Below, piece by piece: positions 12,338 through 63,617 of a stretch of 64,000 bases of DNA (its first letter is position 1; every line of letters starts with the position of its first letter). The DNA is from Geosiphon pyriformis uo1. Lineage: Eukaryota; Fungi; Glomeromycota. Below the pieces are notes generated by a model, which saw nothing but the letters and a program-made list of their open reading frames with translations, ran no database searches and was not told the origin of the DNA. The stretch covers positions 464,485-528,484 of the forward strand of contig JAAOMT010000213.1 in assembly GCA_016748015.1 (NCBI GenBank), read 5' to 3'. The position numbers and the translations under genes are program-made.

Positions 12338-15300
12338 GTGGCGACCACACCAGACACAACAACTCTAGAGTATTACTAATCAATTTACACCCACTGCAAG
12401 CAAAGATTCAACATTCCAGATGGAATTGAAGTTGTCAAGAAATCAGTATACCAATACATTGAAAACTGCATCAACAATTATCTTTTTGGAAATTACAATA
12501 TCTCAAAAGTTAGAAGCAACTTTTACAATAATTTAGTACACTATTCCCAGTTGGAAACTGAAGACCTTAACAGTAAAACACTTGCCACTTACTTTCAAAA
12601 ACTAAATTTTAACATTATCAAGTACTATGAAAAAACATATCTAGTGCAGTCTCAATACTCCATTGATTTTGAATCAGAAACAGAAACAAGCAACAAAGGC
12701 AAACAAAAATTGAAGCAATATTCAAAAACCACCCCAAATACCCCAATACTACCAAAAACAACTGCCAAACACTTACAAACACCTGAACAAGGAACCAGTT
12801 CAAAACTTCCACTTACTATCACATCTTTTTCAGCTTCACTTGCACAGGCACAAACACCTAATTTACCCTTAAATTGATTTGCAAGACTAGAAGATTTTAC
12901 ATCACCCAGAAGTCTCACCAGACAACAAGAACCCCTTCAAACTAGTTCTAATCTCCTTGACTTTCTAGCTGAAAATCGAAGTGAACACTCTGAGACAGCA
13001 GTGAACAAAGAAAACAACTCTGAAATATCTGAAGAAGAATCAATAGACAGTGAAAACAAAGAAGACAAAATGACAGCATACATCACAAAAATCCCTGAAT
13101 TCAATGGAGAAAACATTGAGACCAGTCCCCAAGAATGGCTTGACCAAGTTACTAAAGCTGGAAAGGCAAATGGATGAAATGCTGCCAGAATATTAAGAAC
13201 AATTCTCTACTTTCTTAAAGGAACAGCAGGTGAATGGTTTGAAAACTTAACCACCCCTTTTAATGACTAGACAGCTTTCAAAACTGCCTTCTTAAAACAA
13301 TTCACTGATAACAATACCTCAATCACTCTTTGAAATTGTTTTTGCAATATCAAACAAGAACCCTCCAAATCTGTTATGACTTATATTGGAAAATTCAACA
13401 AACTTCTCAGATGAATTCGCCAACTTGAAACTAATGATTATTATTCTGATGCTCAAATCTTGGATCAATTTATCACTGGTTTAAAAGATAAACTGATTAA
13501 AAAGGTTTGCCCACATGCCCCAGAAGATTTAAACTCTGCCATTCAGCATGCAAAAAAATATAAAATGGCCATGGAAGAAGCCAATCGTACAAAACTCATG
13601 AACTTAGTCATTGGAAAAACCAGCTCAGCAGCTGAAGAGAAAATTGACCAACTCACAAAGAAAGTTGAAAACTATTTCACCAACCAACAACAATAGCAAT
13701 CCCAAAGATATCAACCACCCTAAAGATGGAATCAAAACAGCTTCACATCACTCTCTAATAACCAGTCTCAGAGTTGCCATTACTGTGAAATTCTTGGCCA
13801 CTGGAAAAAAGATTGCAGAAAGCTACAATGAAACCAACAAAATAGGAGTAATCAACATTACCCTCCACCACAACAATTTTATTATCAACCACCACCACCA
13901 GCTTACTATCCACCAAGACCCCAATATCAAAGTAACTATTATCAGCCTGTCTCACAGCCAATTCAACAGCAATACCAACAATTACCCACACAACATTATC
14001 AAGTGCCTGCTTGAAGATTAATTCCACAAAATCAATTTACACCACAAAACCAATACCAAGTAAACAACAATAGAATCAATTCAAACAACCAATTAGTTCT
14101 CCAAAATCCAGCTCAGCCAAAACCCACCTATTATTATACTCAACCTAGCTATTTTATAATACCTGAAGAACAGGATTTTCACCAAACTGCATTCTTGGAA
14201 GGTAGAGCTGCAGCACAACAACAAAACTCTTTCTATACTCCTACCACAATCCCACCAGCCAGAATTGCTGAAAATGCCAACTTTTCAGACATATTCCCTT
14301 TTGAGTTTAAAGCAAATGAGTCACCATTCCTGTTTAGCAATGCGGCCACCAACGAACAAAAAGCAATCACTGCTATGTATACTGAAGCAGAAGTCGAAGG
14401 AAAGGCAATTCGTTTGATCCTAGACAGTGGATTTGCCGGAAGCATCATCACCTACCAGTTAATACAACAGTTAAAGAGAAATGTTGACTGACCAGCTCAA
14501 ACAGTAATTGTTACTGCCGATAGCATAAAAAAGACTCCAGTAGAAAAAATTGACAATTTTTTGTTCACTCTTGATGGAATCACCATTCCAGTCAAAGTTT
14601 TTGTAATAGATGTGCCCCAGTACCAAGCTTTTGTCAGAAATGATTGGCTTCAAAAAGCCAATACTAATCTGAATTGGAAGACACAAGAGTTAACAATCTC
14701 CTACTAAGGACAACATGCCCAGGTACCTGCCACTTGTGGTACATTCAACAAATGCTCCAAAAAAGCCCTGGCTTTTGAATTCGAACTGGAAGAAAAAAAG
14801 CCCATCATTAAAACATTTATGACACTTGGATCAACCTCCAATTGAGCTGATAAAACTAAACAACAGTACTTTTCAACAAATAATTCTCTTGAAACAAAAG
14901 AACTAGTAACAACCGAATGGAATGTTCCCTATTCAAAACCAGAACCACGAAAACAACGCCCTTATATTCCACTCAAATGTAAGGACTGCCACAAGAAACT
15001 CTCTTCAATGGGAGCCTGCATTTCACCTGAAGAAGAATATGAAAATCATACTTGTTATTACTGCAAGGCTTGCCATAGAGAATGATGGGGCCATCTAATA
15101 AAAAGAAGCGGAAAATGGGATAACACCCCTTGTTTAACTTGTGGAGATATGCTACCAGAAGAATGCAATTGAATTGATGTAGCAATGAGAGGAGGAGTCT
15201 GCAATCAGACCTGCCAATATGCTTTATCAATTGCAAAAAAAGTAAAAAGAGAAACACCTTTTAATACGGCATACAACAGTGCTCTCAACAAACTTTATTA

Positions 15301-17971: not shown

Positions 17972-18017
17972 AACATAAAAACAACACCTATTTGAATTAA
18001 CAACAAAACAACAAACA

Positions 18018-19403: not shown

Positions 19404-19525
19404 TTTGAATTTATCATTATAGTTATATCATTATAATTTAGAAACAATCTCACAAAAACAAAACAAAAATAACATAAAAACCCATACACCAAAAATAATT
19501 TTCTTTTATTTTCAAATCTCTTATA

Positions 19526-22891: not shown

Positions 22892-22973
22892 TTTGGTGAA
22901 CCCTACGAAAAAAAAAAATCAAAAAGAAAATAATAATTAGCAATAATTCATTGCTAAAAAGGAAGAGACAAAA

Positions 22974-25900
22974 GTGGTGACAAAAACCCCTAATCTTATT
23001 GTTCTTGAATTTTGCTGTGCTATTTACACACAAAATCAAAGTGATCTTGGATTACCAGAAGAGTGTTGTCCAGCAGAATCTGCCTTTATTTATTATATCA
23101 ATGCCAGAATAAATTATCATATAGGAAAGGAAGAAGAACCACACAATGCAAAACTTGGATTGTATAAAGAATTATTACAATACACTACAAAGGAAGTAGT
23201 AGTAATAGCTGCAACTATTGTCAAAATTCATTGAAAAATTGAACAATACGCCAATAAAAATTTTCTAATATCTACAGAAAACACTAGGGAACGCACCAAC
23301 AAAACCAAAGAAAATTTAGAAACTAATCAGGAAAGTAACCAGCAAAAACTAGGAACACCTGCTCAAACACCAAAGAAAACTGTTATTCAATCAATAAAAA
23401 AACAACATATTTATTTACCAGAAAATAAATCATACCATTTTTCACCAGAAAATAAGATACAAATTCCATTAGGAGCTGCATCATTATTAACATTAACTCC
23501 ACAAACACCAAAAACTCCTAGTTATATTAATAAAATTAAACAATATAACTGGGAAGACATACCAATTACAGGAGAATATTCATCACTATTCTAAAACCCT
23601 CTTTTTCAGCCAAAATTTGGAATGGGGTTTGAAAACCGTGAAGAGAAGTCTGAATTGAAATCCAAAAAAAAGATCAGTGAAAAAACAATCACAAGACTGG
23701 TCACTGGAACAAGCAGCCAGTCCAAAAACTAAAAAACTTGTGATCAAGAAGAAGAACCGGATATAAGGGAAGCCATCTTTAGGAATGCTCAAGGAAATAT
23801 CATCCCACCTTCTCTTAGACCAATAAGTCTACCAGCAAAAAATGGCAATAAAATAACCACACCATACATTGCAAGACTAACAGATTTCTTAGGAGAAGAA
23901 GAAGAAACAGATGTGTACACATGGTTCAAAGAAGCACAAAAAGCCATCCAGGCAAATAACTGGAATGACCAAAGAGCAATTCAAACATTACTTTTCTTCC
24001 TGAAAGGCACAACTAACTCATGGTATCAAAGCCTGAAAACAAAACCCACAAGCTTTGCTGAATTTAAAAATGCACTTCTGGAGTATTTTAGTGACCCAAA
24101 TGCCATAATCCAACTACAGAACAAATTCAATACTATTAAGCAAGGTACTGGTGAAACTGTCACCCAATACCTTGCTCAATTCAATCAAATTCGCCGTCAG
24201 ATTGAAATGATTGAACAAGGATACTACACTGATTCTCAGGTTTTAAATCAGTTTATTAGAAGATTAAAAAGCAGCATTTTAGGAAGAGTATGTCCTGCCT
24301 ACCCTAATTCCTTACCAGAAGCCATTACGCTTACCAGAGCCCTTGAATCAGCTGAGAAAGAAGCTAACCATAGTCAAATGGTTAATATAGTAATGGAGAA
24401 AAATAAGACAGAAACATTAGAGAAAAAAGTAACGCAATTAAGAGAGGAACTCTTTAAGAAAATAGAAAGTTATCTCATCCTGAATCCAAGAAAAAATACA
24501 TACCAAAAAAGACGCAGCCAGAAAGTCAGTGACAGTCAAAATAATCGCTCATTGTGCCAGGAATTCAGAACAGAAACACACACCTGCCATTTTTGCAAAT
24601 GCGTAGGATATTTGATTAGTCAATGTCGAACACGAATAATGCAAGAAGCACACAAAAATAATTATTACACGCCACCCCAAATGCTCAGAAACCAGTACAT
24701 GCCAATACTATGCCAATATCCTACCACGTATCAAAATCAAGGAACTTACCAGCAACAGCCCATGATAGCCAATCTGAATTGGCATCCCAAGGCCCGAAAT
24801 CAGCCTATGTGGAACCATAATGCATTGGTCCAGAGGAATCTAAACTGCACCAGAACCAGTTAGCAAACCAATCCAAACTACCAAAATTATTAACAAACTT
24901 ACCTTAATATACCAGAAAATCTGATCATCAGAAACAATGACAGTAGAAACATAAACAGAACCAAAAATTTCTTTAACAAATTGAGCCAAACAATACCACC
25001 AGCAGTTGCCACCAAAGATAGCAGCCTCGCAGCTATTTTTCCTTTTGAATTAGAAGAAAACAAGACTATGTTCAGTGGAGCAGCATTGGACAAAAAATGC
25101 CCAATTACTGCTATGTATACAGAAGCCACTGTAAACAATACTCCAATCAAACTTATCTTAGACAGTGAATCCACTAAAAGCATTGTAATGCTTCAACTTG
25201 TAAACCAATTGGGTTTCAAAGTTGATCATGCCGTGATGTCCCAAATCATAACAGCCAATGGAAGTACAAAGCTGCCTCATGGTGAAATTGACTCATTTCC
25301 TTTCAAAATTAACAGCATAGTAATACCTACAAAAGTATTAGTAATAAACGCTACACAATATTAAGTATTAGTAGGGAATAACAGGCTAACAAAAGCCAAT
25401 GCCACCTTAGACTGGACCACCCAAGAGCTTCTGATCAATTATAATGGCCACCAGGCCAGAATTTCAGCCACTTGTGGCCACTTCCAAAAACCCAGTGCCA
25501 ACCAAAGACCTACCTTCAAATTTGAGGAAAATCCAGCACTACCAGCCATTGAAATTTATCAACTTTTTTGTGCTAATGACCAAAGAACAGGACTACCAAC
25601 CATACCAACATGAACCAGCGAAGAAAGATCTGAATGGAACCAGATAAGTCCACAAAGAAACCACCAGCGATGCAGACCAAAACTAGAATGCTCAGTTTGC
25701 AAAAAGAAACTCTCGTCTATGGCTATGTGCAGTGCACCAGATGAAGACCCAAGAAACCCCATCCACTACTATTGTAACCATTGTAACAAAGAAAAATACA
25801 GTTACCCAGAAAGACATGGAAAATGAGACGAGGAATTATGTCTCACTTGTGGAGAACTGTTACCAAGAGAGTATGACTGGAACGACATACTAAGCAGAGG

Positions 25901-27103: not shown

Positions 27104-28116
27104 TGTTACTGGAGGTTTTTGGTCTCTTTTTTTAAATGTTGGTAATGTTGATTTGCTGTGAATTCACGTTCTCAGGAAGTAGTTGAACCTCCAATAACTG
27201 AATTTATCTTTAAATTATCTTTTATAATTTGAACTTGCTGGGCTTATAAGTAGAATGGCCAATTCTGTGCCAGTTACTTTATGTAGTTATGTTGTAGTAA
27301 ATGTCAACTCTTTTTCAGGAATTGCTCGTCTGGAAGCTCACTAAAATGTATAGTTACTTTGTTGTAAAAGTCAACTCTTCTACAGGAATCTTGTTTGTAG
27401 ACTACCCTAATAATTGTAATAAGAAAAGAAAAGAAAAATAAAAAAAATGTAAAAAAAATAGAATTTTGTCAAGAGAAACGTTTTCTATTCAGGCCTGGAG
27501 TCACTAACAGTTTACTGAAATGGGTAGCTAATCAATTTTAAAACATTAGTTGGGTTTTGAGGATTTTCTAAGTGCAATAATTTAAAGAGTTTGGTTTTTC
27601 GAATTATTTGATATTTATTTCTTTTTGTGTGTGTAGCAATGGTTCTAAGTGATAAATCTAAAGTAAGATACATTTTTCAGAAGAGAAAAGCTCTTTTTTT
27701 ATACAACTTGTTGTAGTACTAGTCTATGAACTTGCACTTTTTCTCTTTGCTCAAATTTCAGCAAACTAAAGATACATTTTGATGAACTACAAGTTATTTT
27801 GCTGAACTATTGATTAATTTGGGTGAACTATTCATAATTTTGACGAATTTCTGTAAATTTCAGCAAATTTCTTATAAATTTCGGCAAATTTCTGTAAATT
27901 TTGGCGAATTTTTAAATGTTACAAAGTTCAAAGTATTGTGTAATTTAATCATCCTACTTTCTGTTATACTAATTAGATTATTTTAATTGAATTGTGATAT
28001 GTGATAATTGATTAAATAATAAATGATAATTTAAAATAATATTAATATACTAATGAATTATAGAAATTATAAGAGTAATTTTATGCTAATTAATAGCTAA
28101 AATTCTATTGGTAATA
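27104..28116 (-). repeat. 3' LTR of element C
   Basis: Repeat of 36037-37029 with one extra ~20-bp U3 unit. Confidence 0.93.
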
Positions 28117-28804
28117 TAATCTCCTCCTCAAGACTGAGCTCCATCGAAGTCCAAGCACTATCTGTAATATTGAGATAGTGATCTAAAATAATTAAAGTAA
28201 TCTGGTCTGAAAATTGTTGAAATTTCAGTTCTGTGAGTTTGCCAATGTATTGGACTTTTATTGGTTGCAGTATTGAATTTTGTAGAACATTTTCACAAGT
28301 ATTAAACAAGTCATAGAGTTTAAGAGCTGCTCTAAGTTTGTAGCGAGTGTTTGTTGGTCCAGCTGCTGTTTTGAATTCATTGTGAATTTGTTTTTGTATA
28401 ATTTTAGGAGTGAGATTTGTTGCTTCAAGTTCCAGTTTTTGTTCATAAAGTGTTTTTCCAATTTGAAAGTATTTATAGATAGGGGTGTGTTCATTGTTCT
28501 GTTCATTAAGAAGTAGTAGAAGTTTTTGTTGCATTGTAGCATTTGGTGAAATGTCAATAGGGGCAATTAAAAGATTTTTTTTTAGTGCCTGCTTCAAAAG
28601 TCTTGGTAATCTATTCTCAGAGTAACTTCTTGTTTTTCTTTTATAGGGGTGATAGTTCTGTAAATGATTTGCTACTAAGACTGTAGTTTCTTTCTGAATG
28701 TAATTAATTTGACTTCCATTAATCGTTATAGATAAGTTAGGGAGTGTTTTCAAGGCTAACATTAATTTTTGGGATATTTGTTAAATATTTTGGGGAATAA
28801 TCAT
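28097..28804 (-). pseudogene. Accessory ORF3 of element C (one nonsense codon near the N-terminus)
   Basis: MIIPQNI*QISQKL followed by a 221-aa open frame; clear homolog of A ORF3. Confidence 0.8.
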
Positions 28805-28946
28805 GATAAAATTGACTAATTATGAAAAGAGAAAATAAAGAAAATTATTTTTGGATATGGGGTTTTTATTTGTTTTTGGGTTTGGGTGTTTTGTAATTAT
28901 TTACTATTTTTGTCTTTGTGTTTTTATTAAAAAATTATTGTAAAAT

Positions 28947-30332
28947 TTAAGTGTTCAAGTTTGGTTGTTGTTCTATTATAATTATTGGTTCTAAATTTTA
29001 GGGAATATCTTCAGAATTAATTAAAGGGGAATGTATACCAATTTGTGGAATTAATGGTTCAGAATTGTTTCTGGAATGATAGTGTTTCAATCTGTTTCTA
29101 TGTGCAACTTTTGCTAATATTTTGTTATTAAGTCTTAACTTATATGATCTATTGCCTAGAATTTCATAAATATAAAATGGTCCATCCTATTTGTTTTCAA
29201 ATTTCCCACTCCATTGTTTTTCAGCCTTAGTTCTGTGTAAGAGAACTTTATTTCCAACTTTAAATTCGTTGGTAATAGATGGTAATTTGTTGTCATGTTT
29301 TTCTTTTTGTTGAGCTTGGGAATGTTCAATATGAGTTGCTGCTATTTTTTTTTTTCTTCCAGTGTACTAAGAAGAGTGTAGGCTCTTTTTTGGAGTGTCT
29401 TTTGAAAGTTTTCTTCATTGATTGGTTGCACTGGGTATGTTTCCACTGTGAAATTAATTGGTAATGTTGCTGTCCTTCTATAAGTAAGATCAAATGGTGT
29501 GTGTTTCATAGTATCTTGTTTTAGTGTTCTGTATGCTAGTAACACTGATGGAATAAAAATATTTCATTTCTGGTCAAAATTTGTTGAGACTTTGGCTAAA
29601 GATTCACACAATGTTCTATTGAACTGTTCTACAAGTTCATTTGTTTGAGGGTAATAAGATAATGATAGAGGTCTTTTGACATTGAACCATTCACAAATTT
29701 TTTGTATCAAGTTGTTCACAAAATGTGTTTTTTGATCAGATAAGAGTTCAATTGGGCATCCATGTCTACAGATAATGTCTTCATAGATGAAATTTGCTAC
29801 TGATTTTGCATCTGCTCTTTGGATGGCTCTAGCTTCAGGCCATTTGGTAAGATAATTCACTGCAACTGCAATATAACGATTTCCTTGGGTTGTGATAGGT
29901 AATGGTCTGACTAAATCAATTCCAACTCTGTCAAAAGGTTGTCCAACTTTGATTGGATTTAGAGGTTCTGTGGGGTGAGTTCTTCCTCTTCTTTGACAAT
30001 TATCACAAGATTCTACATATTGTTAAATGTTTTTTTGCATGTGGAGCCAAAAAATAATGTTCAAGGGTTCTTTGAATTGTTTCCTCTTTTCCCAAGTGTG
30101 CTAAAGACAGATCTGTGTACATGTTGTATAAAATTGTTTCTTTTTCATTCTCTTGTACTAATCTGAGTGGCTGGTTTGGTTTTCTGTGATTTTTATAATA
30201 GATTTTGTTCTGGTGTATGAAATATTGTTTTAATTGGTGTTGTAAGTGGTGTTTTTCACTTGGAGACCAGTTTTTTGGCATGGTAAAAGTCTCCAAATAA
30301 TTTTTAAGATTGCTGTAGTTTCTGAGATCCAT
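28947..30332 (-). pseudogene. int: Stand-alone integrase ORF of C
   Basis: Starts MDLRNYSNLKNYL; YLTKWPEA, SDQKTHF, YPQTN; same 1386-nt length as in A. Confidence 0.9.
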
Positions 30333-30389
30333 TCTTGTTTGGTTATTTTGTTGGTAAGTTGGTAAATTGTAGTGGAATTGTTGTTGGTA

Positions 30390-33300
30390 TTAATTTTGTC
30401 TCATTCTTGAGAGGCTATCAACATTGGTATGTAGTTTTCCTGGTTTGTAGTGTACAATATATTTGTAGTCTGTTAAGAAGTTATTCCATCAAGACTGTTT
30501 GGCACTTTGTTCAGTTTTCTTTTTATTAAGCCATTTGAGGCCAATGTTATTCGTTATTATGTCAAATTCTTTTCCATTCTTCAGATATTGTTGAAAATGT
30601 TTAAGAGCCCAAATAACTACAGCAGCTTCTAATTCAGTTGAGCCATATTTGAGTTCTGTTGGCTTGAGTGTTCTGCTGACATAGGCAATAACTTGTTCTT
30701 GGCCATTTTCATCCAATTGTGATAAGATGGCACCAAATGCTATGTGTGAGGCATCAGTGGCTAATTGGAATCATTTGTTGAAGTCTGAGTAAGCAAGAAC
30801 TGGGGCTGTTGTCAATTTTGTTTTGAGAATTTCAAAAGCTTTTTGTTGTTTTTCAGTCCATTTGTATGGTACGTTTTTGTTGGTAAGATAATTGAATGGT
30901 TTGGCAATTTCTGAGAATTTTTTTATGAATTTTTGATAATAAGAGGCTAATCCCACAAATCCTTTTAGTTCTGTAGTATTTCTGGGGGTTTGAAAGTTTT
31001 TGACAGCACTGATTGTTCCTGGATTTGGTTTGATTTCATCTTTACTAACTATGTGTCCAAGAAAGATTAAGCTTGTTTTTCTAAAGTGACATTTCTCAAT
31101 ATTTAACTTTAATCCTGCTTTCCATAATCATTGAAAAACTTCTCGCAAGTAAATGAGATGGGCTTCAAAGCTTGGTAAGTATACATCAGTATTATCAAGA
31201 TAAACAACTACTAATTGCCATAAAAGCCCTTCATAGACAACATCCATAAGTCACTGAAATGTTGCTGGTGCATTGCAAAGTCCAAAAGGCATAACATTAA
31301 ACTCATAATTTCCCTCTTGAGTGGTAAATGCTGTTTTGGGTCTATCTTTTGGGTCCATTTCGACTTGCCAGTATCCACTTTCCAGGTCTAAAGTTGAAAA
31401 AAACTTGGCTTTTCCTAGAGCATCTAGCATGTCATCAATTCTTGGAAGAGAGTAGATATCTCCAATTATAACACTATTCAGTTGTTTATAATCAACACAG
31501 AATCTGATTTTTCCATTTTTTTTTTAACTAAAACTACTGGTGAGGCCCAAAGATTTCTTGATGGTTGAATCAATCCATTATTGAGCATTCTTTGGATTTC
31601 TTCTCTAATGAATTGGGGGCTGGCAGATGGCACTCAATAAGCTTGTTGACGTTTTGGTAGAGCATCTTCTGTATGGATCTAATGTTGAACAATGTCTGTT
31701 TTTCCCAAGTCATTGTTGTCTTTTGCAAATATATCTGCAAATTCAGCTATCAATTGTTTCAATTGTCTTTGTTGTTGAGGTTCTAAGGGACTCATATTGA
31801 TTTGAGAGAGTTTTTCTTCCAACAAGTGGTAGTTTTCAGTAGTGGAAATAATATTTGGATTTGGGAGTAGAGTGTGCTTTACAATTTCGATGAAATTAGA
31901 GACAATTTGAGGGTTTTCATCTTGAAAGATATTGCTATGTATGATTCCAATTTCTAATTTGTTTAATAAAACAATAGAGTAATTATTGGGGTTGTAGAAT
32001 GTAACTTGAAATTTTTTCATTCCTTTGGGAATATAAACGTTTGGAATTGATATTTCATGTTTCAAACAGATTTGTTCATTGGATTCAAAGATTTGTTGTG
32101 TAATGGTGGGTTTTGAGCAAGCGTAAATTTTGTGATGTTCTCCAAAAAGTGAAATGGTAATTGGCTGAGGAAGTTGAAGAATTTGGTGAGATTCATTTTG
32201 TGTATTAAGAACTATGTTTACTGGGACTGTAAATCGTCCAGTTGAACCAAAACTTTGAGTTCCTCTTTCACTTTTTCCCAATTGTTCTCTGTTGTTTACT
32301 GATTGTAAACCCGAAATGTTGATTAAGGGTAAGTAAATTGCTTGAGCAATTTTTTCAGCATGTTCAATTTTGAATAGTTTGTCTGTCTCATTCTGTAACA
32401 TGATGGTAATGTCTCCAGTGTATTCTGCATCTATAACTCTTCCTCTAATATTGATTCTTTTGCTTGCCAATGATGATCTGGAGGCAATTTGAACCATTGC
32501 TTCTGGTGGAATTTTAAGAGCAATTTTGAGATTGATTTTTGTCAAAGACTTTGGTTGGAGAATCAAAGTATCTTTTTCTGGGTATTTTAGGTCATATCCA
32601 GCATCAATTTCGTATGCTTTTTCTGGTCTGATTCCTTGGCCATGGTTGTCAAAATATTTAAGTTGTAGAGGTGGTTGTTTTTCAAGAAGATAAATGGGAG
32701 TGGTTGGTAGTTCTTCTACTAGTTCAAATACTCTAAATTCGATTTCATTTTCATCATTCTCATCTGGCAGAGGAATGCTAAGAGCATAACATTCTAAATA
32801 CCATTGGTCATTACAAGGCATAACACATTCTTCACACAATTGAATGTTTATTTGCTCTAATCATTGAATTTGAGCTTCTTTGGTCGGATATATGTGGCTT
32901 GCATTTGGTGGTAGGTTTCTACTTCATTTTTATAATCAAATCCAGCTAATTCTATAGTATACTCAATATATTCAGCTTCTTTCATTTGGCAGACATCTTC
33001 TTGGGTGGCTCCATTTATCAATGCCATTGCTAGATCAAAAATCATTTCAGCATCATGAGGGTAGTGGTAAAGTTTATTGAGAGCACTGTTGTATGCTGCA
33101 TCAAATGGTGTTCCTCTTCTGACTTTTTCCGAAATTGATAGAGCACATACTCCTCCTTTTATTGCTACATCAATCCAATTGCATTCTTCTGATAGCATTT
33201 CTCCACATGTAAGGCAAGGTGTGTTGTCCCATTTTCTACTTCTTTTTGGAGATTCAAATCGTTCTTTATGGCATGCTTTGCAAAAGTAACAGGTACGAGT

Positions 33301-35991
33301 TTCATATTCCTCTTCTGGAGAAATACATGCTCTCATTGATGAAAGTTTTTTGTTGCAATCTTTGCATTTGAGTGAAATATAGGGTGGTTGTTTCCGTGGT
33401 TTTGGTGTAGAATATCTAACTTTCTTCCATCCCCTTGATTCTTCAAAAATCTCTTGTTCGGTTTCTTCAACCCAATTGGATGTTGATTCAAGAGCCATGT
33501 AGGTTTCAGTAAGTGGCATTTCTTTCTCCTCTTCAAATTCAAATACTGAAGCTTTTTCTGATTGTTTGTTAAAGGTATTACAGGTTGCAGGTACTATGGT
33601 ATATTGTTCTTGGTATGAGATTTTAAGTTCTTGAGTTTCCCAGTTTAGGTTTGCATTGGCCTTGAGAAGCCAATCATTTCCAACTAGAGCTTGGTATTGG
33701 GGTGCATCTATAACAAGAACTTTAACTGGAATGGTGATTCTATTAATTGAAAAAGAGAAATCATCAATTTCTCCTACTGAAGTTTTCTTCATACCATCAG
33801 CTGTGACAATAACTGTTTGAGCTGGTCTGTCTACATTTTGTTTGAGTTGTTGCATCAGCTGGTAAGTGATGATACTTCCAGCTGATCCACTATTTAAGAT
33901 TAAGTGAATGGGTTTTCCTTCTACTGTAGCTTCTGTGTACATAGCAGTAATTGCTTTCTGTTCATTGACTGCTGCATTACTAAGCAGAAATGGTGATTCA
34001 TTTGCTTCAAATTCAAATGGAAATATATCTGACAGATTAGCATTTTGGGCAATTTGAACTGGTGGAATGGTGTGGTTGGAAGGGTTTGATCTTAGCGTTG
34101 CAACTTTATCTTCAGAAAGTGCAGTTTGTTGAAAATCCGATTCCTCTGATGTTATAAGATAACTGGGTTGAGTGTGATAGTAATTGGGTCTTTGCTGACC
34201 CGAATTTTGGGGAACCAACTGGTTATTTGGATTGATTCTGTTGTGGTTATTCTGCAATTGATTTTGGGGTGTGAATTGGTTATGTTGAACCAATCTTCTT
34301 GCTGGTACTTGATATTGTTGAGTGGGTGGTGTCTGATATGACTGAATTGGTAAAGGTTGCTAATATTGTTGCTGCATTGATTGTGGAGCTGGTGGATAGT
34401 AGTTTTGATTTTGTGGTCTTGGTGAATAATAGGTTAGTAGTGGAGATTGGTAATAGGATTGTTGTGGTGAAGAGTAACGTTGGTTACTCCTGTTTTTTTG
34501 GTCTTTTTGCAATTTCTTACAATCTTGTTTCCAGTGTCCTAAAATTCCACAATAATGACAATTTTGAGATTGGTTGTTGGATGGTAATCCAAAATTGTTT
34601 TAGTTGTGTCATTGTGGTGGTTGATATTTTTGTGGTTGTTGCTGCTGTTGTTGTTGGTTTGTAAAATAGCTTTCAACTTTTTTTGTGAGTTGGTCTATCT
34701 TTTTTTCAGCTGCTGAGCTGGTTTCTCCAATTGCAAGGTTTACAAGCTTGGTGTGATTTTTTTCTTCCATTGCCATCTCATAGCTCTTTGCATGTCTAAT
34801 AGCAGTTGCTAAGTCTGCTAGAGCATGTGGACAGACTTTTTTAATCAGTTTGTCTTTTAACCCTGCTATAAACTGATCCAAAATTTGAGCATCAGAATAG
34901 TAGTCATTGGTTTCCAATTGTCGGATTCGTCTGAGAAGTTTGTTAAATTTTCCAAAATAAGTCATAACAGATTTAGATGTTTCTTGTTTGATATTGCAAA
35001 AGTGGTTTTTGAGAGTGATAAAGGTATTGTTGTCAGTGAATTGTTGTAGAAAAGCATCTTTGAATGCTTGCTAGTTTTCAAATAGTTCTTCTAAATTTTC
35101 AAATCATTCTCTTGCTGTTCCTTGGAAAAAGTAGGGAATTGCTTTGAGCATTCTTGCTGCAATTCAAACATTTACATCTTCTGCTTTTTGAATCTTGTCA
35201 AGCCATTCTTGAGAACTGGTATCATTGTCTTTACCAGTAAATTCTGGAATTTTTGCAATGTAAGCAGTTGCCATTTCTTCTTTGTTTTCTGTAATTTCTT
35301 CTGGTTTTGATTCAGTTTCTTCACTTTCCAAGCTTTTTGAGTGATTACTTTCGTTTTCCTGTAAGTAATCAATGATATTGGCACTTGTTGATATTGGTTC
35401 CTGCTGTTGAGTAAGATTTCTAGGTGACTGAAAATCTTCTGGTCTGGAGAAATGGCTAAGTAGTGAACTTGGTGTTTGTGGTTAAACAAATGAAATTGGA
35501 AATGGTGTAATAGAAAGTGGTAATTTGACACTGGTTCCTTGTTCAGGTGTTTGCAAGTGTTTGGCAATTGTCTTTTGTAGTGTTGGAGTGTTTGGAGTGG
35601 TTTTTGAGTATTGGTTCAATTTTTGTTTGCCTTTGTTGCTTGTTTCTGTTTCTGATTCAAAGTCAAAAGTGTATTTAGACTGTATTGGGTATTTTTCTTC
35701 ACAATACTCAGTAATGTTAAAATTAAGTTCTTGGAAGTAGGTAGCAAGTGTTTCACTGTTTAGGTCTTCTGTTCCCAATTGTGAATAGTGTACTAAATTA
35801 TTGTAGAGGTTGCTTCTAACTTCTGAAATGTTGTAGTTTCCAAAAAGATAATTGTTGATGCAGTTTTCAATGTATTGGTATACTGATTTCTTTACAACTT
35901 CAATTCCGTTTGGAATGTTGAATCTTTGCTTGTAGTGGGTATAAATTGACTGATAATACTCTAGAGTTGCTGTGTCTAGTGTGGTCGCCAC
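30390..35991 (-). pseudogene. gag-pol: Element C Gag-Pol (dUTPase ~32240-32640)
   Basis: GTG 35991, capsid ATG 35274 and ORFs 34965 and 34293 in one frame; 1-nt deletion near 32900; DAGYDL, ASRSSL, FGSTG; RT LDLESGYWQ and YLDN; ends DSLSRMRQN*. Confidence 0.92.
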
Positions 35992-36036
35992 TTTGAATTT
36001 GTTGTTGCTGTGTTATTTCTATGGGAAAGCACCAAA

Positions 36037-37029
36037 TGTTACCAAAGGTTTTTGGTCTCTTTTCTTAAATATTGGTAATGTTGATTTGCTGTGAATTCAT
36101 GTTCTCAGGAAGTAGTTGAACCTCCAATAACTGAATTTATCTTTAAATTATCTTCTATAATTTGAACTTGCTGGGCTTATAAGTAGAATGGCCAATTCTG
36201 TGCCAGTTACTTTATGTAGTTATGTTGTAGTAAATGTCAACTCTTTCCCAGGAATTGCTTGTCTAGAAGCTCACTAAAATGTATAGTTACTTTGCTGTGA
36301 AAGTCAACTCTTCTACAGGAATCTTGTCTGTAGACTACCCTAATAATTGTAATAAGAAAAAAAATAAAAAATAAAAGAAATATAAAAGAAATAGAATTTT
36401 GTTAAGAGAAACGTTTTCTATCCAGGCCTGGAGTCACTAACAGTTTACTGAAATTGGTAGCTAATCAATTTCAAAACGTTAGTTGGGTTTTGAGGATTTT
36501 CCAAGTGCAATAATTTAAAGAGTTTGGTTTTTCGAATTATTTGATATTTATTTTTTTTTGTGTGTGTAGAAATGGTTTTAAGTGATAAATATAAAGTAAG
36601 ATACATTTTCCAAAAGAGAAAAGCTCTTTTTTTATACAACTTGTTGTAGTACTAGTCTATAAACTTGCACTTTTTCTCTTTGCTCAAATTTTGGCAAACT
36701 AAAAATACATTTTGATGAACTACAAGTTATTTCACTGAACTATTGATTAATTTGGGTAAACTATTCATAATTTCGACGAATTTCTGTAAATTTCGGCGAA
36801 TTTCTTATAAATTTCGGTGAATTTTTGAATGTTACAAAGTTCAGAGTATTGTGTAATTTGATCATCCTACTTTCTGTTATATTAATTAGATTATTTTAAT
36901 TGAATTGTGATATGTGATAATTGATTAAATAATAAATGATAATTTAAAATGATATTAATATACTAATAAATTATAGAAATTATAAGGATAATTTTATGCT
37001 AATTAATAGCTAAAATTCTACTGGTAACA
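36037..37029 (-). repeat. 5' LTR of element C
   Basis: TGTTA/TAACA termini, followed on the minus strand by TTTGGTGCT. Confidence 0.93.
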
Positions 37030-38609
37030 CCATCTATATTCTGGAAGATACCATCATTGGATACCTCGGAATGGAGCTAGAAAATGCATCAACACCACAA
37101 AAAATTCTAAATTTCCCAGAAATCGCCCTCTACTGTAAACTCACTTTAATAAATTGGCAACAACTGTTGGAATGCTATCAATTTATGACAGAAAAATTAA
37201 CCAAATTAAACATTGGAACAATGAATCCTGACCAACAGCGACAATTAAAAGCATTAGTTTTAAAATACTCTGATATATTTTCATGAAATGACAAATTTGG
37301 AAGAACCAACTTGGTTCAACACCAAATCTCCACTGGAGACACCAGACCTGAAAAACAATGCACTTACCATGTTCCACCAATGGAACATAATTTTATCAAA
37401 GAAGAAGTCCAAAGCATGTTAGAAAAAGAAATAATACAACTATCAATGAGCCTATGATCTTCACCAGTTGTTTTAGTAAGGAAAAGGAACGGAAAAATTA
37501 GATTTTATGTCGACTATTGCAAACTAAACAGCAAAACAACCAAAAACTCATACCCAATACCATTAATTGACAAAATCTTTGACATTTTTGGAGGAGCAAA
37601 ATGGTTTTCTACACTGGACTTAACCAGTAGGTACTGGCAAGTGGAAATGGACCCAAAAGACAGGCATAAAACAGCATTCACAACACAAAATAGCAATTAT
37701 GAGTTCAATGTAATGCCATTTGGATTAACAAATGCTCCCGTGACATTCCAAAGACTAATAGATGTAATTTACTCCAGAATCCTGTGGCAATCTGTTGTTG
37801 TCTACTTGGATGATACAAATGTTTTCTTGTCAAAATTCACAGATCATCTCCAACATTTACAACAAGTTTTTAAGAGATTGAGACATGCTGGACTTAAACT
37901 AAATCTAGAAAAATGTTTCTTTGGGAAAAATGAGCTAGTATTTTTAGAACACGTAGTTGGAAAAGATGAAATAAAACCAGATCCATCAAAAATAGATAAA
38001 GTAAAAAATTTTCCAGTATTTCAAAACGTTTCAGAAGTTAGAAGCTTTTTAGGACTCACATCTTACTACTGCTGCTTTGTAGAAAACTTTTCAAACATCA
38101 CCAAACCTCTTAATTATCTACTATCCAAAAATGTGAAGTTTGAATGAACTAAAGCACAACAAAAAGCTTTTGAGTACCTTAGACAAAAGCTCATTGAATC
38201 ACCAATAATGATTTATCCGAATTTCAACAAGAAATTTATTTTGGCCACAGATGTCTCTAGAACTGGACTTGGAGCCATTCTGTCACAAAAAAATGATAAT
38301 GAAAGAGAACATGTAATTGCTTATGCCAGCAGAAGTCTCAGTACGGCAGAGCAAAACTATGCAGCACATGAACTTGAATGCTTAGCAGTAGTCTGGAGTT
38401 GTGTTCATTTTAACACATATTTATGATACCAACCCTTTGAGATTACCACAGATTATAGAGGTCTGGTCTGGTTAAATAACAAGAAAGCGCTAAAAGAAAA
38501 ATATGCCAGATGGTTACAAACGTTAGCATCATACAATTATATTATCAAATACAAAGAAGGTACCAAAAATGCTAATGCTAACTGTTTGTCAAGAATGAGA
38601 CATACATAA
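37030..38609 (+). pseudogene. pol: Element B Pol, 3' part (RT, RNase H)
   Basis: FSTLDLTSRYWQ, MPFGLTNAP, VYLDDT, LATDVS, AYASRSL; ends CLSRMRHT*. Confidence 0.92.
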
Positions 38610-38638
38610 AAATCACCAACCCACCCGCCACAACAATA

Positions 38639-38791
38639 ATGAACATAATAACAACCAACAGTATTGAATGATTTACCAACTCACAATTTTAAAAATTACA
38701 ACAACAAATTAATAACACAGTATTGAACCACTATAGTAACTTAGAATTTAATGAAGAAATTAACTTCAATTTTGATGGAACTCAATCTTAA
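38639..38791 (+). pseudogene. Residual ORF of B: integrase-type start fused to the last ~45 codons of ORF3
   Basis: MNIITTNSIE*FTNSQF*KLQQQINNTVL...FDGTQS* aligns with the ORF3 C-termini of A and E; integrase absent. Confidence 0.6.
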
Positions 38792-38804
38792 AAGGAGTAG
38801 ATAA

Positions 38805-39678
38805 TATTATGGTTTAAGAATTTAGCAAAAGAATCATAAAAATAATATAAACTATTCAATCATAATATAGCACAGTAATAATCTTAGAAAGGTAATAATT
38901 AACATAGTAGCAAACACCATCTTGCGATAGTGGCAAGCACCAGTTCACAATAGTAGCTAATACCAACTGGTGATAGTAGCAAACACCAAGTTGAAATATC
39001 AAAAAAAAGTATTACAATATGTTTTCTCATAGAACTACAAACATGTATATATACAGTAGCTTTAATATTGAAAAAAGTCAATCAAGTAATAAAAATCATA
39101 ACTTATCAAGCAATAAATCCAATTTATCCAACAAACTCCACTTTAAATCATACCTTTAAATTAAATATTCCAAAAAACCTTTAAATCAAAAAAAAAATGA
39201 AAAAGAATATTTAAAACTAAATTATTACAACCCCAAAGTAGTAAGAAACTCATTTGTGTTAATTATTGAATGAAACTATCATTTATCAGTTGAATTCCTT
39301 GGAAAAATAATTCCTGATCAAGATTATTCATGTTGTTACTAATTGATAAAAGCTTTATTGTAAGAATTAGGAAAAGTGCTAAAGACCATTAACATTCTGT
39401 GTTTCTAGATTAGAGAAACACATCAGGCAATTGCAAGGATAGTCTCAGAGAAAATCCCAGACAGCAGGTAGATTTCAGTTCAGCTTCTGAGAAGAAATAC
39501 ATAAACACACACAACAATCAGGAATTAAAAAATAACTTACATCACAACACTAAAGAGAAAGTCTTCAGTATAACAGTGCCATTATCACACAAATAGAATT
39601 AAGAAACTCACAAGAGACTGATTGCAATTAAAACAGTATATTGGCAATTAAATATAACAAGAAAACCATCTCGTAACA
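38805..39678 (+). repeat. 3' LTR of element B
   Basis: TATTA (decayed TGTTA)...TAACA; repeat of 22025-22891. Confidence 0.93.
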
Positions 39679-41427: not shown

Positions 41428-41763
41428 TTTTTTTTTTTATTTGCTTAATGAGTGCAGCCCAAAAACAATCTAATATTATACACCAAAAAAATGATCTAAA
41501 CTAGATGTTAATCATGTGCTTTCTATACATGACTAGTTACTTGGACCAATCAAGGACACACTATGTTGAAACAATAGGATGTGGAAATAATCCCAACCCA
41601 CAAATTTTTTTAATAACACCATTCAGATTTCTAGAATCAAAAATAAACTCACTAAGAAATAATCTAGTAGATTCAACACTACTCTTAACCTCAGTACTCG
41701 ACATCTGCCACAAAGCTATAACATGCTCAACAGTGTTCTTACTTAAGAGAGAAGACTTGGTGG
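41428..41763 (-). mobile_element. 3' end of a second LINE-related element (poly(A), shared 3' UTR, different terminal ORF)
   Basis: Poly(T) at 41428-41438; minus strand gattggtccaagtaactagtcatgtatagaaagcacatgattaacatctagtttag resembles the 3' UTR of the big LINE; upstream ORF ends ...GLGLFPHPIVST*. Confidence 0.7.
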
Positions 41764-42815: not shown

Positions 42816-42876
42816 TTTGGTGCTTTCTGTGAGATTATAAATTCACAGAAACAGAGCACCCCAGAAATACACAAAA

Positions 42877-44863
42877 GTGGTGACTATTGGAACAGTAGAA
42901 AAAGACTACTCTCCATATGAAAAAGCACTATTTCAATACTTTTGAAAAAACCTAAGAATATCAGCAGAAACTGCTTATACAGAAAGTGATTTTTGTAACT
43001 ATATTAATGCAAAAATTGACTGCTTATTAGGCCACACAACTGACACAGGAAGACTGGGAGAACAAATCCATCAAAGCTTATTAGGGTACTCAACAGCCAC
43101 AACCATCCAAGCAATCACTAAAACTCTGCGCATAATCAATACAGACATTAAATATTACATGGCAAAATGATTCTCTCAAATACAACAACCAGTGGAATCT
43201 GATCCTGAGGAATATGAAGATGAATCCAACAACTTCATAACTGTCCAAGCCAAGTTCATGGTCAACAAGAAACCAAGATTCCTTTCCCCAACAACTCCAT
43301 CATACTATCAGACATTTCAAAGTAGAATTGTATTCAACTCACTCCCGGAAACTCAGTTAGAAACACCACAAACTCCTGAAAATCCATACTCTTGGAATCA
43401 ACATAGTTGGACCAAATCATTAGGAGAATATGGATTGTTGTTTGGAAATCTCTCTCCAACATTTAACAAAACAGACAGCAATACGTTGACATGGGAACCA
43501 CCACCAACCCAACTATTGACCGAATTATCAGCCACGCCCTCTAAAGAAACAGCTATTCTCTAGCCCATTGAGAAAATTAACAAAGGGAAACAACCAGAAT
43601 TAGCACCAGGAGAACACTCTAACATGCAAACACCAAACCCTTTAGCATCAATCAGTAAAACTCCACCTACCCACCAGATCATGGCTTACCGAAATATTGC
43701 CAAATTAGAAAAATTTTCTGGTGAAGAAGATGATGCATATATATGGATTGTGAAAGCTGAAAAAGCCATTACCGCCAACAATTGGGATAATGATAGAACC
43801 ATTCAAGCATTGCCATTCTTTCTGACTGAAACCACAGACTCATGATATCAAAGTCTTGCAGAGAAACCAACTGACTTCGCCGCCTTTAAACTTGCCTTTC
43901 TGCAATACTTCTATAACTCTAACACTCTCATCAGATTACAAAATCAGTTCAGTATCATAAAACAAAAAAACCACAAAACAGTAACCACTTATCTTGGATG
44001 ATTCAACCAAATCCTTCATCAAATCCAGGCCATTAAAAGGGATTACTACACTGTAGTGCAAATCTTTAACTAATTCATCAAAGGATTAAAAAGCAGTCTT
44101 TTCTGATCCATAAAATCCCACCACCCAACAAACCTATAAGAAGCAGTTACTCTTGCTTATGACTTTAAGTCAGCAGAATAAGAGGCTAACTATACTTAAG
44201 CCATTAACCTGGCTATTAATAGAACATCTAATATCGACACAAAAATAACTCAATTAAGTGAGAAATTAACTCAGAAAATTAAGGGATTTTTAGCCAGTAC
44301 CATAAGATCCTACCAACCACCACAACGAAAAGATAGTGATAACACCAGATACCAATAACAACAGAATCACCAACAACAACAACAATCTTAGAGATCCAAT
44401 CCCCACAATTGTTACTATTGCCAGAAACTTGGACATATCATTCAGAACTGCCGTAAGAAAGTAATAAACCAAAATTAAGAAAATTAATATCAGCACTTGA
44501 AATACCCTCAAAACATGGTATTTCAATACTCCATGCCTCAATATCAACTGCCTCAATACTTACAACAAATGCAGTATACCCAGCAACTGCCTCAGACCTA
44601 CTACTAGTCTTTACAGCCAATGGTTCAAGCAGCACCCCAGTACCAAAACCCCATTAATAGCCAACCTAAGCATTATGTGATTGATTACAACCAAGAATGG
44701 AGGAACCCCAGCAACAATCAGAGACCAACTAACAGTGTACCATCACGATTCCTAAATTGTAGTAATGCCCTGTTTTGACCAGCACCAACTGGATACCCTA
44801 AACAAGCCTCATATTTTGGTCTTACTGAAATCAAGATTTTTATAGTTCTACATCTTTAGAAGA
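42877..44863 (+). pseudogene. gag: Element D Gag (GUG-opened extension, capsid ATG at 43681, CCHC knuckle)
   Basis: AAAGTGG; MAYRNIAKLEKFSGEEDDAY; CYYCQKLGHIIQNC. Confidence 0.88.
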
Positions 44864-45708: not shown

Positions 45709-45771
45709 TTTGGTGCTTCCTGTAAGGTATAATCCTACAGAGAACCAGCACCAACTACACTCATCCCAAAA

Positions 45772-48700
45772 GTGGCAGAATCAGAAAGTATAGGAGCAAA
45801 CCATTTAGGATTCACAAAATCTTTATTTCAACACTACTGTCAACACTTAGAATTAAACCAAAATCATATATCAGCAGAATTAGCCTTCAATTTCTATGTC
45901 AACAAGAGAATTGCATATTTGTTAGGAACATCAGTAAACACTAAATCAGCAAAAGAAACTTTTTATCATGAATTAATCCAAAACACCAGTCTACCAACAA
46001 ATTATAATTTTGCATCTATCATTACTGAGATTAATAAAGAAATTGAACATCACACACAACAAAAATATCCAATCACTTATGCTAGTAAAGGCAAAAGAAA
46101 ATTACAAACACCAGCAGTGACACCAAAACAAATACAACCACCCACTTGAAAGAAAACCAGAGTTGAATCACCAACAAATCCATCATACCACTATACACCT
46201 AAAAGCACTATCAACATCACATCAACAGGCGTGTCCACATCACACTCGACATCAACTTTTGAACGATTCCCATTTCAGAGTAAACAAAGGAAAGAAGATC
46301 TTTTAGAACCATACAGCATGTATTTTGAAGGATTTAAGTCCTGATTGCCAATGCTATTAGGACTTCAATCTCCACCACTCCAACCAGATTTCAGAACCAT
46401 GAGTCCCTGGAAAGTAATGGAATCGGAAGAAGAACAAAAAGAAGAAGAAGAATCTAAAGATCAAGAATTTACTTACCAGAACCCGATCCCAGAGAACCCA
46501 AACATTGAAACCCTGAATTTCCAGACTCAACAAAATTTAAATTTAGAAAATCCGGAAATTGAAACTCCGAATTTTTAAATGCAGCCAAATCAGAATGACC
46601 GAAACCCTGACTTAATTATTCAACAAAACTTACTTTCTGGAATTATTATTAATCAACTACTAGCTGAATCCATATAACAGCCATCTCAACAACCACTTCA
46701 ACAAATTCATTAGTCATCTGTACCACAACAATAACAACAAATGGCATATACACCAATTGCAAAGCTTGATAAATTCACTGGCGAAGAAGATGACACCCAA
46801 GTCTGGCTGAATGATGTAGCTAAAGCAATTACAACCAATAACTGGGACAATGCTAAAGCTATGCAAGCAATTCTCTACTTTCTTCAAGACACCACTGATA
46901 CATGGTACCAAAGCCTTGCCATCAAACCCCAAAATTTTAATGAATTCAAAACCAAATTTTTGAAGTACTTTAGTAACAATAATAGCATCAACAAGTTAGC
47001 CAACACCTTCATCACAATCAAACAAGAGGAAACTGAAGCAGTTACCACTTACTTGGAATGGTTTCACAGGAACCTACGCCAAATTCAAGCGATCCAAGCT
47101 GACTATTTTACAGCACCACAAATTCTAAACCAGTTCATCCATGGGTTATGCAGTAGCATTCTTCAACATGTACACTTAGTGCACCCACAAACTTTCCAGG
47201 ACACAGTTACCAATGCATGAAATTTCGAAGCAGCTGAACTAGAAGCCAATCATGCTCAAGCCGTAAATTTGGTTATAAATGGATCATTTGAATTGGATTC
47301 CAAATTGAAACAATTCAGTGATTCAATTAATCAGAAATTGGAAGGATACTTAGCTAACAATTACACAATATATCAACCATCACAATAATGTAATAATTCC
47401 GAAAACACAGATCGTTTCCAGAATCAGTCACATCTAACATCCTCAACCAATCAACAGTAGCAGTAGGAAATGCGTATTTGCCACTATTGTGATAAACAAG
47501 GACATTTGCAATTTGAATGTCGAAAAAGAATAAGTGACCAGAGATCAGTTAATCAGTATCGAAACTCTGATCACCGACTACAAACTCAGAATTATGTCAG
47601 TAATCAATTAAATCCAGCTCTATATCAACAAGATTACCTACCTATAATGCAGCCAATATATTAAACACCAATGATGTAGCAATTATACTCACCTCCAGTC
47701 TATCAGCCTCCAGCAGCAATTTATCAACTGCAGTCTTAACCCAATTATCAGCTGCAGTTTCAGATAAATTATCTGCCCCAACAACATCAAACACCACCAC
47801 AGAACTTACCTTAAAACAGAACTCAAAGACTGAGATTAACACAGCAAAGCTGGAGATTGTCAATGCTAGTCCATTAACTGATCCCCAGTTCCACAGCACA
47901 ACCATCAGGATCTCGACCATGGAATTTGGGCACCAGATATGCCCAAAACCCAAATTCCCGGAACTATTTAAGTCTCCTGGTTACCCCAGAAGATGCCTCA
48001 CCCAATAATCTGAAAACCAACCAAAAACAATCACTTACCAACAACATACCTCCAGCCACTGTCATCAACAACGAATCACTAGCAGCAATTTTTCCATTTA
48101 AACTTGAAAAAACTACACCAGTTCTATTATTTAGTGAAGCTGTTCTTGACACTAAACCAATCACCACTATGTACACTAATGTTAAAGTTGATGGCCACTT
48201 CATCAAACTGATCTTAGATAGTGAATCAGCTGGCAGTATTATTACAAAGCAACTCATGGACCAATTAGGTTGCTGAGTTGATTGCACTGCCAGTGCCAGA
48301 ATCATAACTGCTGATGGAGCAACCAAAACTCCCATTAGTGAGATTGATGACTTCTTTATAGAAGTCAATAGCATTATCATACCAATCAAAGTATTTGTCA
48401 TGGAAGCCACCCAATACCAAGCACTTATTAGTAATGATTAGCTATTTAAAACCAATGCATCGCTTGATTGGAATACACAGGAGCTTCAAATCAGCCAGAA
48501 CGGACAACACACATGTGTACCAGCCATATGTGGCCATTTTACAACCACTAACTCAACAGCACCACTTATAGAATTCGAAGAAGAAAAAGAAAAACCTACC
48601 TGGGAAGCTTATCAAGTGTTTTGAACTGACAAAAAACACAACAAGCTGCTGCCAGTACCTTCATAGAACGACAATAACAGGAAAGGAAAGAAAAGAGAAG

Positions 48701-52004: not shown

Positions 52005-52034
52005 AAACATTCCAACCCAAAAATATAACAAAAG

Positions 52035-62529: not shown

Positions 62530-63617
62530 GTGGCAGAATTAGAAAATATAAGAGCAAATCATTTAGAATTTGCGAAATTCTTATTTCAACACTATTGTCA
62601 ACACTTGAGATTAAACCACAATTATATATCCACCAAATCAGCCTTTAATTTCTATGTCAACAAAAAGATTTCCTTTTTGTTAGGAACACCAGTGAATACT
62701 AAATCAGCAAGAGAAACTTTCTACAGAGAATTAATTCAAAACACCAACCTACCAACAAATCATAATTTTACATCCATTATTACTGAGATTAACAAAGAAA
62801 TTGAACATCACACCCAACAAAGATATCCAATTACATACACTAGTAAAGACAAAGAAAAATTACAAACACCAGCAGTAACTCCCAGAAAAATACAACCACC
62901 TACTTGGAAGAAGACAAAAGTTGAATCACCAACCAATCCATCTTATTACTATACACTCGGAAGCACCATCAACATTTTATCAACAGATGCATCCACATTA
63001 AATGCAACATCAGCATTTGGATGATTCCCATTCCAAAGTAAACAAAAGAAAACAGAATTATTAGGACCATATAGCAAATACTTCAAAGGATTTAAATCAC
63101 AATCACCAATGCCATCAGGAATTTGATCACCGCCACCTCAACCAGATTTTGGAACCACTACCCCATAGGAACTATTTGAAGAAGAAAAGAAAGAAGAATC
63201 AAAAGATCAAAAATTTATTTACCAAAACCCAATCACTGAAAACCCGGAAGTTGAAACACCGAATCTTCAAATCCAGCAAAATTTAAATTTAGAAAACCCA
63301 GAAATCAAAACCCTGAATATTCAACCATCACCAAATTAGAACAATCAGAACTCCAATCTAATTAATCAACCAGACTTACTTCTCATTATCATCATTAACC
63401 CACCACCAGTTGAACTGATTGGCCAGCCACTACAACAATCACACCAGCAGATTCAACAGCCACTAATACCACTTTAACAACCACCACAACACAACTTAGA
63501 TCCAATGGCATATGCACCAATAGCCAAACTTGAGAAATTCACTGGCAAAGAGGATGACACTTAAGCCTGAATTAATGATGTCGCCAAAGCAATTACTGCC
63601 AATAACTGGAATGACGC
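62530..63617 (+). pseudogene. gag: Element F Gag, 5' part
   Basis: GTG in AAAGTGG; AELENIRANHLEFAK; capsid start MAYAPIAKLEKF ~63506. Confidence 0.85.

Follow-up and report, generated by a model that had tools for sequence, protein, structure and literature searches.

The window analyzed here, a 64,000-nucleotide stretch of the Geosiphon pyriformis genome, contains six decayed Ty3/Gypsy LTR elements (A to F) that amount to four independent families.

11310-21197, plus strand: element A, with LTRs at 11310-12293 and 20214-21197
~22025-39678, plus strand: element B, carrying C nested inside it
27104-37029, minus strand: element C, nested within B
~41763-61627, plus strand: element D, carrying E nested inside it
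44864-54988, plus strand: element E, nested within D
from 61631, plus strand: element F, cut at ~63615 by an A/C-type LTR, its 3' part leaving no trace in the window

The elements show the Ty3/Gypsy layout of paired TG...CA LTRs with a primer-binding site (PBS) after the 5' LTR, and Pfam matches (PF03732, PF19259, PF13650, PF00078, and PF00665) identify a Retrotrans_gag/Ty3 capsid, an aspartic protease, a reverse transcriptase (RT), and an integrase in PR-RT-IN order; a dUTPase is present too, and the RT of C was located through its DNA likeness to that of B. A reported 41.2% of the genome of G. pyriformis consists of LTR elements (PMC11952901). The LTR pairs of A to E are 87.5 to 94.7% identical, and ~96% of the differences within pairs are transitions; 72% of CpG sites have changed, versus 17 to 23% of other C sites. 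As ATG arises by such decay from ACG, xAC|G, and CGTG, decay has to be allowed for in any count of start codons. For per-copy DNA statistics we used the six elements in the window together with 13 copies of LTRs, and contig pile-ups as well as predicted proteins; the proteins are gene-model predictions from one genome, biased toward ATG starts and in some cases spliced by the predictor. Upstream of A, at 6950-11278 (plus strand), lie decayed open reading frames (ORFs) with an RNase H match (PF00075), probably the remains of a non-LTR element that A interrupts.

The features of element C, all on the minus strand, are as follows.

36037..37029: 5' LTR (TG...CA), 94.7% identical to the 3' LTR (~27104-28122)
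36631..36636: TATA-like box and putative promoter, ~600 nt before the LTR end
36098..36100: ATG in U5, the sole one between 36606 and the capsid start
36017..36034: PBS, beginning TGGTGCT right at the LTR end; its 3' limit is approximate
35989..35991: candidate GUG start, context ttcaaaGTGgcg
35677..35991: conserved N-terminal domain of ~105 amino acids, with four predicted helices at residues 7-23, 31-50, 55-69, and 79-100
35275..35676: linker kept in frame, rich in S/T-P, that includes a basic KGKQK cluster and has an acidic end
35272..35274: capsid AUG (gaaATGg), opening the Retrotrans_gag/Ty3 capsid region
29567..35274: decayed gag, protease, dUTPase, RT, and integrase, from Pfam matches and DNA likeness

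The original prediction for this locus was that the long frame of each element opens not at an AUG but at a GTG within AAAGTGG, well upstream of the capsid. This GTG was confirmed in all six copies (at 12338, 22974, 35991 on the minus strand, 42877, 45772, and 62530), each time in aaaGTGg, with the A at -3 and G at +4 that mark a favorable context for a near-cognate start. In 6/6 copies it is in frame with the capsid start 239 to 325 codons downstream, the GTG-to-capsid spacings of A to F being 732, 879, 717, 804, 969, and 975 nt, each divisible by 3. The capsid ATGs were also found where they had been placed (13070, 35274 on the minus strand, 43681, and 46741), with that of F starting at 63505 and B having ATA at 23853. 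Two parts of the prediction had to be narrowed: the motif occurs in all six elements, but these are not six independent cases, since A and C (81% identical over the extension region) and E and F (78%) are sibling pairs; and although the frame starts at the GTG in 6/6 copies, it is open in none, every copy having 1 to 6 stops. The extensions of the other elements, all on the plus strand, are as follows.

12338..13072: extension of A, from GTG to capsid ATG
22974..23855: extension of B, from GTG to capsid codon, which is ATA here and Met in 2/3 family proteins
42877..43683: extension of D, from GTG to capsid ATG, Met in 11/11 family proteins
45772..46743: extension of E, from GTG to capsid ATG
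62530..63507: extension of F, from GTG to capsid ATG

Several patterns indicate that the extension is coding. Its first 105 codons align across families around an invariant Tyr, Ile, and Leu, at a between-family identity of 20 to 27%, versus 35 to 51% in the capsid. Within the domain, 21/38 differences between A and C and 27/51 between E and F fall at third positions, with third-position transversions at 5/6 and 7/10, respectively. The checkable stops sit at columns that are Gln, Arg, or Trp in family proteins (clearly so for 8/13 stops in B, C, D, and E), the one TAA in the linker of C being at a family Gln column. Judged by these patterns, the frame is a coding one, and its conservation begins at the GTG. 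The distance from the GTG to the invariant Tyr is 40, 41, or 42 codons, in frame every time, and around the domain start the GTG is the sole in-frame near-cognate codon common to all six copies. Upstream of it, E/F-like proteins use three frames (24, 5, and 4 proteins, plus 4 other), A/C proteins use several different frames, and the PBS region of D, E, and F carries a stop. Position 1 could be aligned in 151 family proteins, of which 126 have Val, 17 Met, and 8 another residue; we read the Met copies as products of G-to-A decay because they are scattered and are favored by gene finders. Position 2 is mostly Ala, and the residue preceding the GTG is Lys in most proteins and Thr in one subfamily, either of which preserves the A at -3. 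AAAGTGG occurs 21 times in the window versus 7.0 expected, and its signal is its place and frame, not its mere occurrence. In contig pile-ups of C and D, no alternative letter was seen at the GTG among the rows listed, the shares of which lean to the reference, and 0/18 of the listed changes that were checked in C create an ATG. A stimulatory hairpin ~14 nt past a near-cognate start helps initiation but is optional; no conserved one was found after the GUG, with z < -2 in 1/6 copies, all of them decayed, and decay erodes pairing.

The extension itself appears to consist of a folded domain and a flexible tether. AlphaFold2, given a 53-row alignment, predicts a four-helix domain (pLDDT 89, pTM 0.81), and the linker, 134 to 220 residues long and S/T-P rich across copies, is likely disordered; 5/6 copies retain a KGK[QR]K-like cluster. 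All 92 database hits for the extension of C and all 46 for that of D are G. pyriformis proteins. The domain has no Pfam match, and none was found by a search of solved sequences (in which only the capsid region aligned, to dArc, at E 0.11 to 0.18), by Foldseek against PDB and BFVD (nothing at E<=0.001), or, in usable form, in the ESM Atlas; the best VIA-align results (Z 7.1, rmsd 3.9) were to unrelated helical proteins. As regards a myristoylated matrix protein, residue 2 is Ala, not Gly, and the fold searches gave no clear match of any kind. A signal anchor was considered and rejected, as the maximum 19-residue hydropathy is 0.47 to 1.49 in 6/6 copies and the highest values fall in the linker or in an amphipathic helix.

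The second component of the prediction was an AUG desert between the PBS and the capsid. Element C has 0 ATG over these 762 nt versus 7.5 expected from dinucleotides (P 5e-4), within an 826-nt ATG-free run that is the longest in the window on both strands, and A has just the two ATGs that had been noted (12420 and 12627), neither of which is present at the aligned position in C. Raw counts for A to F are 2, 5, 0, 10, 9, and 5, versus 8.1, 15.7, 7.5, 14.5, 13.5, and 11.6 expected, so that the desert as first described holds for A, B, and C and weakly for F but not for D and E (P 0.14 each); in-frame ATGs ahead of the capsid ATG occur in B, D, E, and F. Pooled with one copy per family, there are 20 ATGs versus 49.3 expected, or 26 versus 51.8. 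ATG is the first or second most depleted of the 64 triplets in A, B, and C, while the gag-pol bodies of A, B, C, and E have about as many as expected. Stable Met columns number 0/909 in the extensions versus 6/561 downstream (P 0.003), five of the six coming from one family, that of C.

Most of these ATGs look like products of decay after insertion. A decay call required CpG-type mixing in family proteins (~25 to 55% G-to-A or T/M, V/M, or R/Q mixing, over a background of ~15%) or a sibling that retains CG or CA. By our tally, 21 of the 31 ATGs have this signature (1 in A, 3 in B, 8 in D, 4 in E, and 5 in F), 3 (A +82, B +172, and D +553) are ambiguous, and 7 are without test data, five of these lying in the E linker and being absent from F. 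The question of whether the leaders of B, D, E, and F retain genuine AUGs, on which the prediction could have failed, thus came out mostly in its favor, with some sites ambiguous. At +82 in the A/C family, Arg is found in 9/85 proteins and G>A mixing is below the CpG level, suggesting that most of the family carries a genuine out-of-frame AUG in weak context; a 4:1 asymmetry in the ACGG context, at n=5, bears on the same site. Synonymous resampling of the extensions revealed no extra ATG avoidance (P 0.16 to 1.0), so the deficit resides in amino-acid choice and order; codon shuffling gave P values of 0.048, 0.008, and 0.01 for A, B, and C and of 0.62, 0.068, and 0.144 for D, E, and F. CpG-type junctions show no significant excess in extensions (11/18) versus downstream (7/15; P 0.49). 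The low-complexity Gag tail is also ATG-poor (A, 5 versus 8.3 expected; C, 3 versus 8.2), the G content of the element strand is low, at 11 to 14%, and a 688-nt ATG-free run occurs in AT-rich DNA elsewhere in the window. A real desert therefore exists as regards in-frame Met and, overall, in A, B, and C; it is partly compositional and not absolute, given the likely genuine +82 AUG of A/C and the AUGs of short upstream ORFs (uORFs) in the U5 of D, E, and F.

Further upstream, a TATA-like box is similarly placed in 13/13 LTR copies examined (~730 nt from the LTR end in D), and the transcription start was placed from this motif alone. The last ATG common to all four A/C LTRs is at 36606, 30 nt past the box; over the R-U5 region (~560 nt), no ATG is fixed among the four copies, and C has ~1,330 nt after the box with a single, decay-derived ATG. 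That ATG, at 36098..36100, is by comparison of the LTR copies a product of CpG decay, since the 3' LTRs of both A and C read CGTG at this position; the one upstream in-frame ATG of A likewise corresponds to CGTG in the 3' LTRs, and the U5 ATG, at -108/-109, was rejected as a start for this reason. The leader of B has one shared uORF of 5 codons, and in D, E, and F several AUGs are shared, most of them opening short uORFs, ~410 to 550 nt before the LTR end. Shared uORFs in the 5' part of U5 (2 to 10 codons, with one of 27 to 36) are found in the LTRs of D, E, and F and in solo LTRs at 684-1543 and 2724-3591. The PBS of B, at 22899-22915 (plus strand), reads TGGTGAACCC, while A/C and D/E/F use TGGTGCT..., which suggests that B was primed by a different tRNA; AAAGTGG is kept regardless. 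A ~30-nt motif stands twice in tandem in the A/C U5, after a T-rich tract (36230-36330, minus strand).

We consider it probable, at roughly 0.7 from the sequence comparisons, that initiation at the GUG, combined with leaky scanning, yielded a long and a short Gag(-Pol). For the predicted pair of starts, conservation of motif, frame, and coding potential was borne out, and their use by ribosomes is inferred from it. During the active life of the elements, the GUG just past the PBS would have captured a minority of ribosomes, and most would have scanned on to the capsid AUG, the first dependable AUG, giving a minor long product and a major product starting at the capsid. For near-cognate starts, G at +4 together with a purine at -3 is described as required, and initiation as ~2 to 30% (PMC3542737), so most ribosomes would pass on; GUG is described as second to CUG among near-cognate starts (PMC5666671). 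In D, E, and F, ribosomes would have to pass the short U5 uORFs or reinitiate after them, as described for other leaky-scanning RNAs (PMC3542737). The long form, having no membrane anchor, would likely bring a soluble accessory domain into particles, where nuclear or cytoplasmic targeting, regulation, or copy-number control may be guessed at; the KGK[QR]K-like cluster is only a hint toward targeting.

It is unlikely that the GUG was used while the capsid AUG was reached by another route (through an internal or spliced transcript, by shunting, or by reinitiation) or was a mere internal Met. Such a route would spare ribosomes the ~1.3 kb of scanning that, in C, lies between the inferred transcription start and the capsid AUG, and the encounters with the U5 AUGs of D/E/F and the +82 AUG of A/C, and Ty1 is described as using an internally initiated RNA (PMC5408680); however, it leaves the ATG deficit in the extension and in the A/C U5 unexplained, Met is retained where the capsid begins, both between families and in a second lineage described below, and AUG-free scanning over 895 nt is documented for rice tungro bacilliform virus (PMC3542737).

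We regard it as more doubtful still that an upstream exon provided a true AUG, with AAAG|TG as a splice acceptor, or that translation read through from an in-frame AUG in U5. Several predicted proteins do splice LTR sequence onto the domain at AAAG|TG, one (P0010) runs in frame from an ATG in U5, and a Diversispora-type lineage has Met at the start of a long linker. Against this, the U5 ATG is the CpG decay product described above, the 90 nt upstream of the GTG contain no CTRAY-type branch motif, the sequence before the AG is mostly purine-rich, no upstream in-frame AUG is conserved across families, and the upstream frames vary even within families; a splice-supplied AUG, which the original prediction had named as a challenge to itself, is thus not supported. 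Very improbable is the reading of AAAGTGG as a cis-acting element, in RNA or DNA, close to the PBS, with the start elsewhere and the ATG deficit a by-product of A/C-rich, G-poor low complexity: the G-poor strand, the ATG-poor A/C Gag tail, the 688-nt run, and the 21 motifs would fit it, but the motif keeps frame with the domain over three spacings in four families, coding conservation starts at the motif, the stretch from the motif to helix 1 is free of AUG, and ATG depletion in A, B, and C contrasts with gag-pol bodies near expectation.

The domain appears confined to Geosiphon in our searches: in a profile search, the 150 of 197 matches listed resemble the Geosiphon families, 6/6 divergent matches looked up were from Geosiphon, and the domain was absent from the metagenome contigs searched. 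The RT and integrase were not found in the viral or prokaryote contigs searched. Of 80 integrase loci, 6 were examined in detail, and L004 and L022, both metagenome loci, reach the capsid start. The undecayed L004 has 0 ATG in the 349 nt ahead of its capsid ATG, where 5.0 are expected, and at xAY|G junctions it uses C in 6/6 cases in the extension versus 7/25 downstream (P 0.002). L022 has 5 ATGs in the 231 nt upstream of the capsid versus 3.7 expected and thus no desert. Relatives of L004, among them five from Diversispora epigaea, carry extensions in frame with the capsid that span ~160 to 260 residues and lack internal Met; together, proteins P0277-P0284 and L004 (1-349) form a second lineage with a Met-free extension before the capsid Met. 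A helical segment of the Diversispora type was rejected as a homolog of the Geosiphon domain (hhalign probability 0.5, unrelated). What the two lineages have in common may be the layout and not the GUG: some Diversispora-type members have Met at the head of the long linker, the helices are unrelated, and L022 lacks a desert, so perhaps the layout alone is shared. We put forward tentatively, at a little under an even chance, a clade-wide dual-start Gag: Glomeromycotan Ty3/Gypsy elements would have independently evolved the initiation trick of glyco-Gag, one conserved GUG and <=1.3 kb of AUG-purged RNA would fix the ratio of a long Gag with a new four-helix accessory domain to capsid Gag, and the second lineage, with its unrelated extension in the same Met-free layout, would share the strategy, concealed by annotation that considers AUG starts alone.

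Other ORFs of these elements also deserve mention. Integrase appears to be encoded by a separate ORF in C (30300-30420, minus strand), where a stop after RT-RNase H is followed a few codons on by Met-Asp/Glu, and the same is seen in L001 (739-800), L004 (3695-3830), and L022 (3737-3810). A separate integrase ORF is unusual for Ty3/Gypsy elements and may need reinitiation or an RNA of its own. An extra ORF of ~230 codons without a Pfam match follows integrase at 19499-20242 (plus strand) and 28100-28780 (minus strand); L001 has a similar-looking one (2456-3145), and L004 and L022 have 149-codon ORFs there. A Cys-rich segment with CxxC pairs, again without a Pfam match, lies between protease and dUTPase (~33050-33380, minus strand) and is also found in A and B.

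G. pyriformis gene models start these proteins at spurious upstream exons. If our reading is correct, the elements of this early-diverging fungus have a new accessory domain and a testable GUG start, and a conserved near-cognate codon followed by an AUG-poor frame past the PBS would serve as a search rule for hidden Gag extensions of further retroelements.

The Geosiphon elements share the order of LTR, PBS, capsid, protease, RT, and integrase with Ty3/Gypsy elements (Metaviridae) that have a dUTPase, and they differ from these in their additional N-terminal domain and linker without a Pfam match. PEG10 is itself of Ty3/Gypsy origin. Like the Geosiphon elements in our reading, it makes a Gag-like protein from both a non-AUG and an AUG codon, as established by mutagenesis; PEG10 is a domesticated mammalian host gene with a CUG and a 34-residue extension (PMC2800197), whereas the Geosiphon elements are autonomous and have a predicted folded domain and a long linker. 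The comparison with glyco-Gag, part of the original prediction, applies to the logic of initiation: as we propose for Geosiphon, murine leukemia virus (MLV) makes a minor, N-terminally extended Gag from an in-frame non-AUG codon upstream of the AUG (PMC5120145, PMC3542737). It does not extend to a signal anchor, for which no segment is hydrophobic enough, or to a gammaretroviral Gag, as the capsid is of the Ty3 type and resides in a fungal genome. MLV glyco-Gag uses a CUG, and its 88 extra residues include a signal sequence that makes it a type II membrane protein (PMC5120145, PMC3542737); the fungal LTR retrotransposons have a GUG, 239 to 325 residues without an anchor, and an AUG opening directly on the capsid. 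Rice tungro bacilliform virus resembles our reading in its non-AUG first start followed by ~895 nt without other AUGs, but has separate ORFs, an AUU start, and shunting (PMC3542737), in place of the single continuous frame of Geosiphon. The Neurospora gene cpc-1, also fungal, has a long, conserved, AUG-free near-cognate extension plus uORFs; it encodes a transcription factor and uses several near-cognate codons, yielding, in an in vivo reporter, <1% of the output of the main AUG (PMC5487733), where Geosiphon has one conserved GUG. In literature searched by title and start of abstract, with subscription papers thinly covered, we found no non-AUG Gag of an autonomous LTR retrotransposon. A non-AUG extension of Gag is thus already known from gammaretroviruses and PEG10; the Geosiphon case would place it in fungal LTR elements, together with a new domain.
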